This document shows positions 45,673 to 53,390 of a DNA stretch of 57,486 nucleotides, piece by piece. Position 1 is the stretch's first letter. Each line of letters begins with the position of its first letter. The translations under genes and the position numbers were made by a program. The stretch is from a virus (taxonomy: Duplodnaviria; Caudoviricetes): the IMG/VR virus record IMGVR_UViG_3300027704_000029, positions 1 to 57,486 of that record. One strand, 5' to 3'. Under the pieces are notes generated by a model. That model saw nothing but the letters and a program-made list of their open reading frames with translations. It was not told the DNA's origin and made no database searches.

Positions 45673-46134
45673 TTAATTATTGTAGTAACTTTTTTTCCCA
45701 GCTTTGTTTTTACTTCTATCTCTCATTATCTCAGCTTCACGCTCGAGATCTGCTTTTTTTTGCTTTTGCGTTTTAGTTTCTTTTTTCCCCGTACGATTCG
45801 ACTCTTCGTTAACAAAAGATTTTCTGTCTTCTAAATCACCAATTCTCTCCATTTCAACAAACCTATCTCCAGCACCAGCACGCTTTTTTGGTGGTCTATT
45901 GTTGTCGTTTATAGTTTTTCTATCGTTTTCCATTTCCTTTATACCATCTTTAGGGTTATCACCATTATAACCTCTACCGTACACCCAAACATCATCATTA
46001 TCACTCTTAATGTTTTGCTCTGGTATTGGACCTTGTTGATCACCTTTTGATGACTCGTAATTTTTACCTTTATTCTTTTGAAACAATGGAGTTCCTTCCC
46101 CAAAGCTCTTCATACCTTTCATTTTAAATGCCAT
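45673..46134 (-). CDS. MAFKMKG-leader family basic protein
   Basis: Starts MAFKMKGMKSFGEGTPLFQ. Confidence 0.75.
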   Translation of the reverse strand: MAFKMKGMKSFGEGTPLFQKNKGKNYESSKGDQQGPIPEQNIKSDNDDVWVYGRGYNGDNPKDGIKEMENDRKTINDNNRPPKKRAGAGDRFVEMERIGDLEDRKSFVNEESNRTGKKETKTQKQKKADLEREAEIMRDRSKNKAGKKSYYNN

Positions 46135-46142
46135 AGTATTAT

Positions 46143-46439
46143 TTATTTCTTATATTTTGCTTTAACTTCTCTTTTCACTTCCCTAGCTTTAGCTTTGAAT
46201 TCCTTCTTTTCACTCTTATATTTATCCCTAGCTTCTTTTTTCCCCTCCTTATAATCCATCACTTTTGAAACCTCAATATTTTGGTTCCTCTCGTTCTTCA
46301 TTTGCTTTATTACCCCTCTTTTTGCCTTTCTCAAGCTTTTTAACTCATCTCTCTTGTTATCAAAAACTGGGGGAGTGTATTCTTCTTTTTGTGGTAGTGG
46401 TGAGCTGTAGAGGCTCGATCCTTTCATCTTAAATGCCAT
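46143..46439 (-). CDS. MAFKMKG-leader family basic protein
   Basis: Starts MAFKMKGSSLYSSPLPQ; Lys/Glu helical body. Confidence 0.75.
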   Translation of the reverse strand: MAFKMKGSSLYSSPLPQKEEYTPPVFDNKRDELKSLRKAKRGVIKQMKNERNQNIEVSKVMDYKEGKKEARDKYKSEKKEFKAKAREVKREVKAKYKK

Positions 46440-46442
46440 AGT

Positions 46443-46898
46443 TTATTTCTTTTTCTTTTTCAATTTTGCTTGTTTTTCTTTCTTTAAATCATCTAACTGA
46501 TACTTTTGCCAAGAAGGAACTTTAGTTTTCTGTTTTTGCGCATCACCTTCTTCTAGTTGAGTTTCATCAATTAAAAGACCTTTTGGATAATTGTTACTAA
46601 CCATAAAAGTATCTCTTGGTGCGGTTCTATCCACGTCATAATCATTACCCTTAAAAGTTTTTCTTGATGTTGTAACTGGGTTATCAGAATCTCCAGAGTA
46701 AGATTCATGATCTGTTAATGATGTTACAAAGCTGTTTCCTTTTTTATCTTTTTGTACAGCTGAAATGTTTTGTACATTGTTGTTTTTAAGATCATTATCT
46801 CCAGAGGTATTTCTAGCCTTTACCTTACTTGCTTTACTCGCTTGTGATTGTTTCATTGGTGAGCTGTAAAAACTCGATCCTTTCATTTTATACGCCAT
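46443..46898 (-). CDS. MAFKMKG-leader family protein
   Basis: Starts MAYKMKGSSFYSSPMKQ. Confidence 0.75.
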   Translation of the reverse strand: MAYKMKGSSFYSSPMKQSQASKASKVKARNTSGDNDLKNNNVQNISAVQKDKKGNSFVTSLTDHESYSGDSDNPVTTSRKTFKGNDYDVDRTAPRDTFMVSNNYPKGLLIDETQLEEGDAQKQKTKVPSWQKYQLDDLKKEKQAKLKKKKK

Positions 46899-46923
46899 AG
46901 TTTATTTTTTTGTTTAACTCTTT

Positions 46924-47112
46924 TTAATAATCTGTATATTTATTAATCTCTTTAGAAGCCTCGTTTAATTCTTTTCCTTTCTCCATAAGGCTAGCATCTT
47001 TCTTTTTAGATACTTTGTCAGCAACGTATGTTCTAGCCTTTGCTTTAGCTTTGTTTAATCCTTGGTTTTTAGAGTTGAAATCAAAGTGACTTCCTTTCAT
47101 TTTATATGCCAT
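46924..47112 (-). CDS. MAFKMKG-leader family small protein
   Basis: Starts MAYKMKGSHF. Confidence 0.7.
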   Translation of the reverse strand: MAYKMKGSHFDFNSKNQGLNKAKAKARTYVADKVSKKKDASLMEKGKELNEASKEINKYTDY

Positions 47113-47115
47113 AGT

Positions 47116-51008: not shown

Positions 51009-51277
51009 TACTTACAGTTACACTTTTTCTTACCACAACCACACATTTTATGAGGAGATCCTTTGTGGAACAAACCAGTTGCTCCAGCTACAGCACCCAT
51101 AGGTCCCAATGCTAATCTACCAACGTCACCGATGCCAAACTTACCATCTTTACCCATTAAAGCTCCTTTTGCAGCTCCACCTATCTTCTTTGCTAGTCCA
51201 CCAAAAAAACCTTTCATTGGAGAAGGATCAGAACATGTATTGTTCTTGCGGTTACCTTGTTTCATTTTATATCCCAT
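51008..51277 (-). CDS. MAFKMK-leader family protein with Gly-zipper-like segment
   Basis: MGYKMKQG..SPMK-GFFGGLAKKIGG...-SPHK-MCGCGKKKCNCK. Confidence 0.7.
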   Translation of the reverse strand: MGYKMKQGNRKNNTCSDPSPMKGFFGGLAKKIGGAAKGALMGKDGKFGIGDVGRLALGPMGAVAGATGLFHKGSPHKMCGCGKKKCNCK

Positions 51278-51279
51278 GA

Positions 51280-51546
51280 TTATTTCTTTTTCTCTATTTT
51301 AGCATGCTGAGCTTTCGTGTGCATTACTTTCTTACCATTTACATAATCACCTACATGCTTGCCACTTTTATCAAAAATCTTGTTTTCATCTGCACCTTCA
51401 CCGCCTTTTGTTACTCTTTGTTGAAAAGGAGATGACGTTGCTCTACCATCAGCTTGTCCATCGTATCCAGTCTTTTGATTTTTTATTGCTCCTTTCACTC
51501 CAAACCCTGAGTTGTATAGTGATGGACCTTTCATCTTGTATGCCAT
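51280..51546 (-). CDS. MAFKMKG-leader family protein
   Basis: Starts MAYKMKGPSLY; internal SSPFQQ. Confidence 0.75.
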   Translation of the reverse strand: MAYKMKGPSLYNSGFGVKGAIKNQKTGYDGQADGRATSSPFQQRVTKGGEGADENKIFDKSGKHVGDYVNGKKVMHTKAQHAKIEKKK

Positions 51547-51577
51547 AATTGTTTTGTTATATTATTATTATTACGTG

Positions 51578-52459
51578 TTATGCTATAGATTTATTACTTT
51601 TAGCTTTATAGTTCTCAGCATATTTCTTTTTATTCTTTACCTCTTTCGGTTTGCTTACATAGTCAGTACCTTTCTTTATTCCGGTTTTCGCTGTTTTCTT
51701 TACTACACCTTGAGTTACTTTTGAAGCTAGCTTCTTCCCACCTGTTTTTAGCGCTTGTTTTCCTGCAGCGTAAGCTAATTTAGTACCAGCAACTCCTTGT
51801 CCAACAACAGGTATCATCATCGCAGCGTTTAATGCCATATTCGTAGTGTGCTCTTTTACTCCTTTCTTGTCACCAGTAGCTCCAGCGTAAGCAGCTCTTC
51901 CTCCAGAAACAGCAGTATTCACTCCATCAGCTATAATACCTACACCTGGAATTGTTCCAGCAGCTGTTAAAGCGATTTGTCCAGCGTCAAGAGCATCTTT
52001 CCAACCAAACTCTAACGGAGATTTTTTAGTTTTTTTTTTAGCAGCAGCTTTAGCTAAGTTAGCATCATAAATTGCTTTACCTTTTGCATCTAAATCTTCA
52101 CGTCTAACTACATCTTCTTTTTGTTTATCTAAAAACTTCTTATCTTTTTTAGTATAACCCTTTGGAAGTGGCTTGCCATTTACTTTTTGCTTAAAAGGTG
52201 GAGAAACTCCTCCTTTAGCTGTTGTTTGAGCTTTAGTTAATGCAGTAGATTTTTTCGATGCAGCGTTATTTGATCTATCTTTCTTAATCTTCGCTTTATT
52301 ACCATTAGCATCGGGATCATTAGTGGATTTACCACCTTCATCACCTCCTGGTTTATTCTTATAAGCATTGTAAGCTGCTTTAGTAGTATTTTTACCGTTT
52401 ATCTTGTACCAATACGCACTAGCAACCTGTTTTATCGCACTATATCCTGTGTTTGCCAT
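51578..52459 (-). CDS. Modular basic protein with pre-toxin TG-like domain
   Basis: ALTAAGTIPGVGIIADGVN...TGD...NAAMMIPVVG; internal SAIKQ, SPPFKQ and SPLEF. Confidence 0.6.
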   Translation of the reverse strand: MANTGYSAIKQVASAYWYKINGKNTTKAAYNAYKNKPGGDEGGKSTNDPDANGNKAKIKKDRSNNAASKKSTALTKAQTTAKGGVSPPFKQKVNGKPLPKGYTKKDKKFLDKQKEDVVRREDLDAKGKAIYDANLAKAAAKKKTKKSPLEFGWKDALDAGQIALTAAGTIPGVGIIADGVNTAVSGGRAAYAGATGDKKGVKEHTTNMALNAAMMIPVVGQGVAGTKLAYAAGKQALKTGGKKLASKVTQGVVKKTAKTGIKKGTDYVSKPKEVKNKKKYAENYKAKSNKSIA

Positions 52460-52914
52460 TATCCTTGAGTTTTATTCATTTTACCAGTAACTAAGTTACG
52501 GGTTCTTCTTACTTTCCTGCCTTTTTTCAACTTAGGCAACTTAATCTTTTTTATTTTGTCAACAATTTTTCTGCCGATGGATCTATTCTTCTTCTTATCA
52601 CGAGCATCGGATATAGCTTGTGTCTTTTTATCTAAAGTAACAGCTGGAGCAGTATAAGAAGGAGCTTTTTTAGCCTTAATAAGCTTACCTTTCTTCACTT
52701 TCTGCTTCCTCATCTTCTTAACCCTCATTTTCTTAGGATTGTATGATTGATCGGTCTGCTCTCCGTCTTCAAACCTATTAGTTACAGTAGCTCCGTCTTC
52801 CTTCTTTACTGTAAATGCCTGTACTTTCTTACCTGCTTCATTAGTACCTAGGTTTTTTACAGGCTTGACGCGAGCAATACCTTCCGATGTGTTAATTTTC
52901 TTATCCTTTGGCAT
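52459..52914 (-). CDS. Highly basic hypothetical protein
   Basis: Lys/Arg-rich ORF coupled to its neighbours. Confidence 0.65.
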   Translation of the reverse strand: MPKDKKINTSEGIARVKPVKNLGTNEAGKKVQAFTVKKEDGATVTNRFEDGEQTDQSYNPKKMRVKKMRKQKVKKGKLIKAKKAPSYTAPAVTLDKKTQAISDARDKKKNRSIGRKIVDKIKKIKLPKLKKGRKVRRTRNLVTGKMNKTQG

Positions 52915-52919
52915 ATCGC

Positions 52920-53390
52920 TTAGTTTTTGTCCATTCCGTCATCACCAGCGAATTTAACATCCTTGTACTGATCTTCACCTTTCTTTGGTTTTGGAGCATA
53001 CTTACCTCTTTTATGGAATTTATCTGCTTTATCGTTAGCAGCATCTTGTAGAGCTTTCTTTTCAGCAGGAGTCTTCTTAGCGAAGTCAGCTTTATTCTTA
53101 GCAATCTTTGCAGCTTGCGTCTTGTTAACAGCACCATCTTTCATAACCTTACGGTTACTACCGTTACCTTTTCCTTCAGCATCTTCTTTCTTATCTAATG
53201 CTTTATCGTCATACTCATTAGTATTAGGTTTAGTAGGATCAACCTTGTATTCGCCCATCTCATAACGAGATTTAGCTAATTCTCTACTTTGGTCGTCATC
53301 ACCCTTTGCAGCACGTGGTCCGAAGTTACTTGTTTTTACTTGTTTCATTGGACTTCCATATAAAGAAGGTCCTTTCATCTTAAATGCCAT
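52920..53390 (-). CDS. MAFKMKG-leader family protein (first gene of late arm)
   Basis: Starts MAFKMKGPSLYGSPMKQ. Confidence 0.75.
   Translation of the reverse strand: MAFKMKGPSLYGSPMKQVKTSNFGPRAAKGDDDQSRELAKSRYEMGEYKVDPTKPNTNEYDDKALDKKEDAEGKGNGSNRKVMKDGAVNKTQAAKIAKNKADFAKKTPAEKKALQDAANDKADKFHKRGKYAPKPKKGEDQYKDVKFAGDDGMDKN

Follow-up and report, generated by a model that had tools for sequence, protein, structure and literature searches.

Why should eleven small genes with dissimilar bodies all begin with nearly the same peptide? The question is raised by the genome of an uncultured tailed phage, the IMG/VR virus record IMGVR_UViG_3300027704_000029. It is a whole record of 57,486 bases with a CheckV completeness of 97%, and this whole stretch is called the window here. 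An earlier note on its DNA had described a shared N-terminal leader on these genes and had taken it for a sorting tag that loads a variable set of proteins into the virion. The present analysis shows or strongly indicates a part of this idea, namely that the leader is a shared functional tag, that it is coupled to a protease and that the tagged genes are exchanged as cassettes. The parts of the cargo idea that did not gain the same standing are virion loading and cleavage of the tag.

A shared leader on dissimilar genes

When all six frames of the window were searched with the regular expression M[AGS][FY]K[ML], 11 matches were obtained, all on the minus strand and all at the start of an open reading frame (ORF). 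They begin at 46134, 46439, 46898, 47112, 47478, 47735, 50679, 51008, 51277, 51546 and 53390, which are the starts named before, with none elsewhere. The core is directly followed by KG in 8/11, again as claimed. That most of them reach [ST]P-[LMF]-x-Q within about 20 residues is just true, as six of the eleven do so (TPLFQ in the gene starting at 46134, SPLPQ at 46439, SPMKQ at 46898 and 53390, SPFKQ at 47735, and SPLKQ at 50679). The general layout of the tag is a core M-A-F-x-M-x-G, usually MAFKMKG, then a small/aromatic spacer, and often [ST]P-hydrophobic-K/Q-Q/K. All eleven products are basic, with 62-156 residues (aa), pI 9.5-10.0, a net charge of +7 to +16 and 15-24% Lys. The tagged genes, with the stretch of leader DNA that is discussed later, are as follows.

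52920..53390, minus strand: tagged gene, 156 aa, MAFKMKGPSLYGSPMKQ...; the minus-strand arm starts here; pI 9.6, net charge +11
51280..51546, minus strand: tagged gene, 88 aa, MAYKMKGPSLYNS...; SSPFQQ at residues 38-43
51008..51277, minus strand: tagged gene, 89 aa; variant leader MGYKMKQ...SPMKG
50682..51008, minus strand: tagged gene, 108 aa, MSYKMKGPSLY...; mosaic body of module A and a CNCWKGH..VPG..GSC module
50359..50679, minus strand: tagged gene, 106 aa, MAFKMKGSNFYGSPLKQ...
47478..47735, minus strand: tagged gene, 85 aa; short leader MAFKMTSPFKQ
47116..47478, minus strand: predicted mini-zincin, 120 aa; variant leader MGFKLGR; HEGKH and, downstream, the Glu of WEKAA
46924..47112, minus strand: tagged gene, 62 aa, MAYKMKGSHF...; cassette absent from one natural variant
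46443..46898, minus strand: tagged gene, 151 aa, MAYKMKGSSFYSSPMKQ...
46143..46439, minus strand: tagged gene, 98 aa, MAFKMKGSSLYSSPLPQ...; net charge +16
45673..46134, minus strand: tagged gene, 153 aa, MAFKMKGMKSFGEGTPLFQ...; the next gene downstream is the holin
46878..46892: leader core of 15 bases, codons 3-7, with the same letters as 47092-47106; crossover of the natural deletion

The distribution of the tag was followed in IMG/VR with a degenerate 20-base pattern for MA[FY]KMKG, which matched at least 120 contigs (loci of up to about 15 kb). These loci hold 151 pattern sites. All 151 lie no more than 37 codons from an upstream in-frame stop, and 150 open an ORF of at least 45 aa. As a control, the same pattern was applied to bacterial and archaeal genomes, 596 billion bases in all, where at least 120 loci matched, with one match per locus. 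If an ORF start is defined by at most 40 in-frame codons back to the upstream stop and an ORF of at least 40 aa, 150/151 of the IMG/VR sites are such starts, as against 16/120 of the bacterial matches listed. Most of the non-start matches in the control lie inside ordinary genes, many of them in one recurring conserved gene, and no small Lys-rich tagged protein was present among the 120 matches listed. This excess of start positions in the phage loci makes the N-terminal tag a phage feature. The proposal that the tag occurs in prophages or host genes was dropped, as each bacterial locus listed has one match, which mostly falls within an ordinary gene.

The same control bears on the suggestion that a host factor reads the tag, either as a signal for turnover by an AAA+ protease (ClpXP, for instance) or as mimicry of a host N-terminus. 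The N-terminal ClpX motif has the form polar-T/hydrophobic-hydrophobic-basic-hydrophobic, which the tag resembles. The N-terminal position, the alternating hydrophobic and basic residues of F-K-M-K and the disorder of the tag in fold models would all suit such a signal. However, the 16 start-like bacterial matches open ordinary longer or unrelated ORFs, and the small Lys-rich proteins of the phage kind are missing from the 120 bacterial loci listed. Further, the core tolerates extensions before it, and the strict link with the zincin is left unexplained. Recognition by a host factor is, therefore, considered very improbable.

A looser regular expression, applied to the proteins, recovered at least 253 tagged ORFs among the 3,629 ORFs of the 120 loci, with 0-7 per locus. 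The 25 longest records of the set, each of at least 40 kb, carry the strict DNA pattern 1-6 times, nearly always on a single strand, and the reversed-pattern control gave one match overall. The window, with 10 such sites, has the highest count among the records scanned. In 24/25 of these long records the large terminase (TerL) is 73-84% identical to that of the window, and GroEL is present in 20/25. The terminase identity thus points to one uncultured clade and not to a tag hopping between lineages; a spread over unrelated phage lineages was dropped for this reason.

Among deposited phages, the closest are MW202828, whose TerL is 64% identical, the Flavobacterium elemo phages, with 45%, and the Cellulophaga phi38:1/Calle phages. 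The tag was not found in 42,193 of the 60,850 bases of MW202828 or in 42,160 of the 59,979 of elemoE, both of which span the region from GroEL to the terminase, nor in 14,658 of the 72,534 bases of phi38:1. A tblastn search of 50,697 phage records, a collection that may omit records very near the window, gave no match for the zincin of the window, the zincin of the IMG/VR locus L100 or the 156-aa tagged protein. Similarly, a full-text literature search by the string MAFKMKG and by related virus taxa found no description of the tag.

Behind the tag, the proteins have little in common. With the first 12 residues cut off, there is no BLASTP pair among the 11 window bodies at E<=1e-3, which gives no sign of the full-length paralogy that would have spoken against a sorting tag. 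A set of 264 tagged proteins falls into 98 BLASTP clusters, 69 of which are singletons, and the eleven of the window sit in 11 different clusters, which agrees with the dissimilar, Lys-rich bodies described before. The body of the 153-aa gene belongs to the largest non-zincin cluster (44 members), that of the 108-aa gene to a cluster of 17, and that of the 156-aa gene to one of 4. The third-largest body cluster is a chain of mosaics, in which short modules occur in varying order. Such modules include DUF6321 (module C), a CW.GY.RVPG..GSC Cys module and a GATLRDWF...KCGE module (L046, L057, L004, L102, L109, L101). Some of them also occur tagless in members of the clade, as does module D in L079 and L014. 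Pfam recognized DUF6321 alone, in 3/10 mosaic members. For the 11 window proteins, neither Pfam nor PHROG yielded a match over threshold, and Pfam on the 10 longest tagged proteins gave one sub-threshold match (DNAPolymera_Pol, 20.8 bits against a cut-off of 26).

An ordinary family of tandem paralogues could also present itself in this manner, if its disordered bodies had diverged past recognition and the N-terminus were the slowest-changing part. The genes are indeed in tandem, are alike in composition and charge and have similar Lys-rich C-terminal ends. Yet they carry distinct modules in varied combinations, which are found tagless as well, and the zincin, predicted to be folded, bears the tag too. 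Along with the lack of body similarity, this leaves common descent of the whole proteins only a slim chance.

The rate of turnover was compared by tblastn of the window genes against the 120 IMG/VR loci at a coverage of at least 50%. The zincin has homologues in 77 loci, the 146-aa gene in 63 (with up to 92% identity), the holin in 55, GroES in 50, GroEL in 45 and the 97-aa gene in 35. The non-zincin tagged genes have homologues in 0-3 loci each, at 31-56% identity. Their turnover is, therefore, much quicker than that of the genes that lie among them. The 146-aa gene (47737-48177) is the best-conserved small gene of the region.

The leader as a peptide and as a crossover site

Is the conserved element a peptide, or is it a piece of DNA or RNA that happens to be translated? 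The synonymous variation of the leaders had earlier been read as selection on the peptide, and the wider set of genes bears this out. The leaders of the window differ by GCA/GCG, AAA/AAG, Ser TCN/AGY and Leu CTC/TTA/CTT/CTA, and also by TTT/TAT/TAC. In 247 unique tagged ORFs, Gly7 is written with all four codons (GGT 0.36, GGC 0.22, GGA 0.22 and GGG 0.20), and the Phe and Lys codon usage of the leaders equals that of the bodies. Nucleotide conservation above amino-acid conservation, which would have pointed to a translation or RNA element, is not what this codon usage displays.

The position of the core tells the same. Among 185 occurrences of [FY]K[ML]KG, 158 are at residue 3, 25 at residues 4-29 and 2 deep inside proteins. 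Most of the 25 offset cores follow short real extensions such as MARKSKAKFKMKG, and some follow a mis-called upstream ATG; the core thus tolerates 1-8 preceding residues. Taken with the codon variety at Gly7, Ser and Leu, these counts make a pure start-codon effect unlikely. Conservation continues through residues 8-17 of the tagged proteins. Further, [ST]P-hydrophobic-[KQ..]-[KQ] is present in 48/201 non-zincin tagged proteins, as against a mean of 3.8 and a maximum of 12 in 200 shuffles. It lies within the first 25 residues in 28 of the 48 carriers and recurs inside proteins. The evidence supports a leader that is a peptide-level element and not an RNA or DNA element.

The leader DNA has, besides, left a trace of recombination in nature. 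Near-identical DNA of the block (98-99% of sampled words) is present in marine and seawater runs from 12 studies, released in 2016-2025, and this recurrence over many studies indicates a phage that is widespread and persistent. Six of the runs holding such DNA are RNA libraries. Contigs from four RNA-library runs (three studies) span the block; DNA carry-over is possible in them, and transcription is not proven thereby. In one such contig, X16 (1,369 bases, depth 8.2, from an RNA-library run), position 46877 is joined to 47092, with 214 bases skipped. The 15 letters common to both sides of the joint are leader codons 3-7 of the genes starting at 46898 and 47112. The joint thus lies inside the leaders and describes a variant that is without exactly the 62-aa cassette and that has a hybrid leader. 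Collapse during assembly is unlikely because the 15-base repeat is shorter than the 31-letter word of the assembler. One natural variant has, therefore, lost one cassette through leader-to-leader recombination. Other leader pairs have exact DNA identities of 14-23 bases.

Two more joints were seen in RNA-library contigs. The first (47479 to 47737) would drop the 85-aa tagged gene, with a side of 20 letters and a depth of 3.4. The second (50801 to 50959) skips 157 bases inside the 108-aa tagged gene and inserts GGT. Both were too weak to be counted as cassette losses. It had also been proposed that new cargo is gained by fusing the tag. The tagless copies of modules and the one cassette loss both fit gain and loss at the tag, and this part of the proposal is supported.

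These results also bear on whether the leader is a start cassette, that is, a favourable site for starting translation in a host that does not use Shine-Dalgarno pairing. Such a cassette would spread by recombination and let AT-rich, Lys-rich ORFs arise and be expressed, its peptide having no partner of its own. Ala2 is skewed to GCA (0.62, as against 0.25 in bodies); it is the only skewed codon of the leader and implies some translational pressure on the second codon. A AAATAAACT-type junction is found immediately 5' of the ATG in several copies and, along with the 14-23-base identities and the recombination just described, would suit such a cassette, as would bodies that are low-complexity and short-lived. 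Against this stand the four codons of Gly7, the Ser switches between TCN and AGY with the residue kept, and the conservation up to residue 17. Moreover, the core is kept behind 1-8 residues and twice deep within proteins, and the capsid, portal and terminase genes have no leader. We give the start cassette a small chance of being the right explanation.

A predicted mini-zincin with the tag

One tagged gene differs from the rest in its conservation. The ORF at 47116-47478, named a protease in the earlier note, was aligned with 15 leader-bearing proteins of about 105-120 aa, and H58, E59, H62, W108, E109 and A112 were found invariant in 16/16. A search with the profile of the whole protein, and not with the tag, gave a family of at least 2,120 members (E<=1e-3, 90% clustering), none with a Pfam domain and all named 'hypothetical protein'. 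In the 120 best of these 2,120 members, HExxH and WE..A are present in 120/120, and 118/120 start with MAF, MGF or MSF. The commonest starts are MAFKMNG (42/120), MAFKMKG (12) and MAFKLKG (12), and it is this variety that defines the fixed core of the tag as M-A-F-x-M-x-G. In the subclade of the window, the tag of the zincin has drifted to M[AG]FKLG, and other genes retain MAFKMKG. A single copy of the zincin is found in 21/25 long tag-bearing records and in 9/9 of those that are at least 90% complete. The protease is thus tagged itself and goes one-to-one with the tag system, and its motifs support the prediction of a zincin-like metallopeptidase.

In the AlphaFold model (pLDDT 79.7), the HExxH helix comes behind a small sheet and is itself followed by a beta insert and a C-terminal helix that bears a Glu. 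This downstream Glu of W-E..A would be the third zinc ligand. Foldseek gave no match to the model at E<=1e-3. The best rows of VIA-align were zincins, with PprI/IrrE (Z 6.5, rmsd 3.5, 84 aligned) and an M78-type regulator (6.1) ahead of ArdC (Z 5.5), SPRTN (5.4), abylysin (4.7), Wss1 (4.4) and selecase (4.2). Such Z values make a zincin fold likely, though short of proof. At the level of sequence, none of the Pfam zincin families M78, SprT-like, DUF6782, eCIS_core and M90 scored above its gathering threshold. The best were DUF6782, in 6/16 members at E 0.0013, and M90, with 14.1 bits against a cut-off of 26.2. A PDB profile search gave a weak selecase match (E 0.23), and the atlas leads were SprT-like and M78.

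The enzyme thus appears to resemble the minimal zincins, with no membership of a named family. It shares with them (the minigluzincins selecase, abylysin and jannalysin; SprT/Wss1/SPRTN; IrrE/PprI of M78; ArdC) a size of about 100 residues and, in the model, a small sheet ahead of the HExxH helix and a Glu borne by the C-terminal one. It differs in the small beta insert modelled between its two helices. Also, we know of no minimal-zincin family that has a conserved N-terminal MAFxMxG tag as a feature. The L021 zincin found only distant, leaderless catalytic modules in the 50,697 phage records (Xanthomonas XacN1, Xoo-sp13, Methylophilales Melnitz and others); the catalytic module is thus older than the tag and more widely spread. 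One such distant relative, ORF071 of XacN1 (L253 7842-8348), has HE..H ... W.GK.Y ... PWE.DAY without the leader.

The constant presence of this enzyme raises the question of whether the tag is simply a pro-peptide in the infected cell. The zincin would then remove it, or cut at SP-x-K-Q, and thereby activate or free small basic effectors, for instance proteins of host takeover or of nucleic-acid binding, with nothing being packaged. The one-to-one co-occurrence argues for this, as do the enrichment of the second motif, also inside proteins, and the N-terminus of the zincin itself, which has the same layout, with [ST]P-hydrophobic at residues 15-18, after tag and spacer, in 27/66 zincins. Minimal zincins with self-inhibiting tails are known as well, and abylysin and jannalysin zymogen entries are among the structural neighbours. 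On the other side, the cleavage of the tag is itself inferred, and the models do not dock the tag on the enzyme. Its residues have a pLDDT below 50 and are undocked both in the zincin of the window (residues 1-15) and in a canonical MAFKMKG zincin (residues 1-12). This disorder lends no support to docking in cis, nor does it count against it. A co-fold of zincin residues 16-120 with the first 40 residues of tagged proteins and Zn gave no answer (ipSAE 0.02 and 0.01; mark 0.32) and so speaks neither way on binding. There is, further, no evident reason why unrelated proteins should all require activation, and the tagged genes share an arm with structural genes. On balance, a pro-peptide system of this kind is somewhat doubtful.

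A possible address into the capsid and its setting

If the tag is neither a mere start nor a pro-peptide, where could it lead the proteins? Gene order offers a hint. The tagged genes flank GroEL and the GroES-like ORF and open the long minus-strand arm, as had been described. The arm begins with the tagged gene at 53390, two untagged basic genes, four tagged genes, a 97-aa gene, GroEL and the GroES-like ORF; it continues with the 146-aa gene, the tagged gene at 47735, the mini-zincin, four tagged genes and the holin. Tail-fibre-type genes, the large terminase, the portal, an acidic scaffold candidate, a capsid-type protein and two giant proteins (2,583 and 3,183 aa) lie downstream of the holin. 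The profile matches are strong for the holin (PHROG 3427, E 1e-31), the large terminase (E 3e-171) and the portal (E 4e-140). The untagged features that concern the tag are these.

52459..52914, minus strand: untagged neighbour, 151 aa, very basic, pI 10.8, net charge +35
51578..52459, minus strand: untagged basic neighbour, 293 aa; starts MANTGYSAIKQ, a degenerate leader
48428-49993 and 48168-48458, minus strand: GroEL and the GroES-like ORF, lying between the tag blocks; the latter is called GroES-like from its position and by eye
47737-48177: 146-aa gene between the GroES-like ORF and a tag block; sole match PHROG 17028, a family without an assigned function
19332..19355, minus strand: internal MKGSPLKQ (context TMKGSPLKQ), at about residues 225-233 of a 604-aa protein

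The two untagged neighbours that follow the gene at 53390 have net charges of +35 and +39, and no family was found for them in Pfam and PHROG scans. The product of 51578..52459 holds SPPFKQK internally, and the module behind it carries the tag directly in other phages (e.g. L118 and L016). A pre-toxin-TG reading of 51775-52003 was dropped, as there was no Pfam match at E<=0.1. The protein at the scaffold position (32925-34010) is very acidic, with pI 4.5 and net charge -44, as against the strong basicity of the 13 tag-block proteins, so that the two might pair electrostatically.

The nearest precedent is found in T4, where diverse internal proteins share only a capsid-targeting sequence (CTS) and have lysines in contact with the packaged DNA and an activity against host defence (from passages of PMC3012670). 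The likeness lies in a short N-terminal peptide that alone is common to diverse, fast-changing, small basic proteins (IPI, IPII, IPIII and Alt, in the hypervariable locus of the T-even phages). The protease differs, being a predicted zincin of about 110 aa with HExxH here and a serine head protease in T4. The phage differs as well, since the window has a podovirus-type genome with a P22-like portal, of the phi38:1/elemo kind. Compared by eye with what we take to be the T4 sequence, the tag has no likeness to it and is without the Glu of its cleavage site. The analogy with T4 would be one of function only, without membership of the T4 system.

In the giant phages SPN3US and phiKZ, the head protease of the phage processes many different ejection or inner-body proteins by cutting them at a short motif that they have in common (PMC7411985 and PMC5694885). 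In these myoviruses the motifs mark where a serine head protease cuts and are not one N-terminal tag. No modifying enzyme, exporter or injection-system gene was seen beside the tags of the window in Pfam/PHROG scans, which gave holin, GroEL and tail/head genes only. Such partners are of interest because a conserved N-terminal leader or signal with variable payloads and a dedicated peptidase or loader is also the plan of RiPP precursors, class II bacteriocins and the cargo of contractile injection systems. The payloads here differ from those of RiPP-type leader systems, being 60-560 aa long.

On this footing, we tentatively take the tag for an address that its carriers share and that leads them inside the capsid, where the zincin would be a processing enzyme brought to the same place. 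The reading draws on the T4 precedent, the gene position, the occurrence of basic cargo by an acidic scaffold candidate, and the presence of the tag on the protease itself. It also draws on the lack of a classical head protease: S78, ClpP-type and S49-type enzymes were not found in the genome, and control genomes did match. A scan for Peptidase_S77 (T4-type) gave no match in the genome, though the control genomes gave none either. The proposed system would be specific to the clade and would consist of an N-terminal peptide, a recombining set of small, basic, low-complexity proteins and one tagged zincin. A partner would recognize the peptide as a shared address and gather the basic proteins and the protease, most probably inside the assembling capsid. 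The Lys-rich proteins would sit with the DNA in the capsid and exit together with it when the phage infects a cell; their trimming or removal would fall to the zincin. The identical leader DNA would double as a crossover site, by which cassettes are swapped, gained and lost.

A number of points weigh against this address. Packaging and cleavage are pure inference, drawn from genes, and a cultured carrier was not found among the 50,697 phage records searched by tblastn. Position is the sole feature that the tag has in common with the T4 capsid-targeting sequence, and, to our knowledge, capsids of the P22 kind do not usually require a head protease. The tag is predicted to be disordered and undocked in the two fold models. 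The GCA bias at Ala2 concedes something to translation. In L079 and L014, the zincin is the sole MAFKMKG gene of the stretch read, and such zincin-only members imply that the tag is not simply the mark of many substrates. Lastly, the sole tie to a likely virion protein is the internal MKGSPLKQ of the 604-aa protein.

A fuller version of the capsid address would make the peptide both an encapsidation and an ejection signal, in a podovirus lineage that lacks a classical head protease. A swappable set of Lys-rich proteins would form a DNA coat that goes into the cell with the genome and shields it from restriction or other defence. A co-packaged mini-zincin like SprT, IrrE or ArdC, which is a DNA-associated type of protease, would strip this coat to make the genome readable, and the identical leader DNA would be the recombination site at which marine phages exchange these cassettes. 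As a whole, this is unlikely.

Some further features of the genome were observed. The 604-aa protein (18213-20027) is Gly/Ala/Gln-rich and lies between two giant virion-type proteins. Its TMKGSPLKQ is the sole tag-like stretch of the window outside the tag cluster, and the positional counterparts of the protein in MW202828 and elemo gave no useful alignment with it. An M15 peptidase, a likely endolysin, is encoded at 3811-4266, and the holin (45280-45672) is 41 kb away. The products of 4256-6637 and 7587-8618 have signal-peptide-like MKKLL... starts, and the former, of 793 aa, is very acidic (pI 4.1). A scan of the window for sigma-70-type promoters gave 41 sites as against 36.2 expected and is uninformative on timing; a TAnnTTTG promoter scan gave no site just upstream of 53390.

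The phage that carries the tag block is uncultured and is common in marine samples, and its tagged zincin belongs to a family that is large and still has no name. If the tag is an address, it would provide a handle on dozens of uncharacterized protein families of marine phages of the Bacteroidota type. The T4-style loading of variable cargo would then have been invented a second time, independently, and there would be a ready-made tag for placing foreign proteins in such particles. If it is a start cassette instead, the block would let us see new genes in their nursery. On either view, the deletion between two leaders shows how the accessory genes of phages are shuffled in nature.

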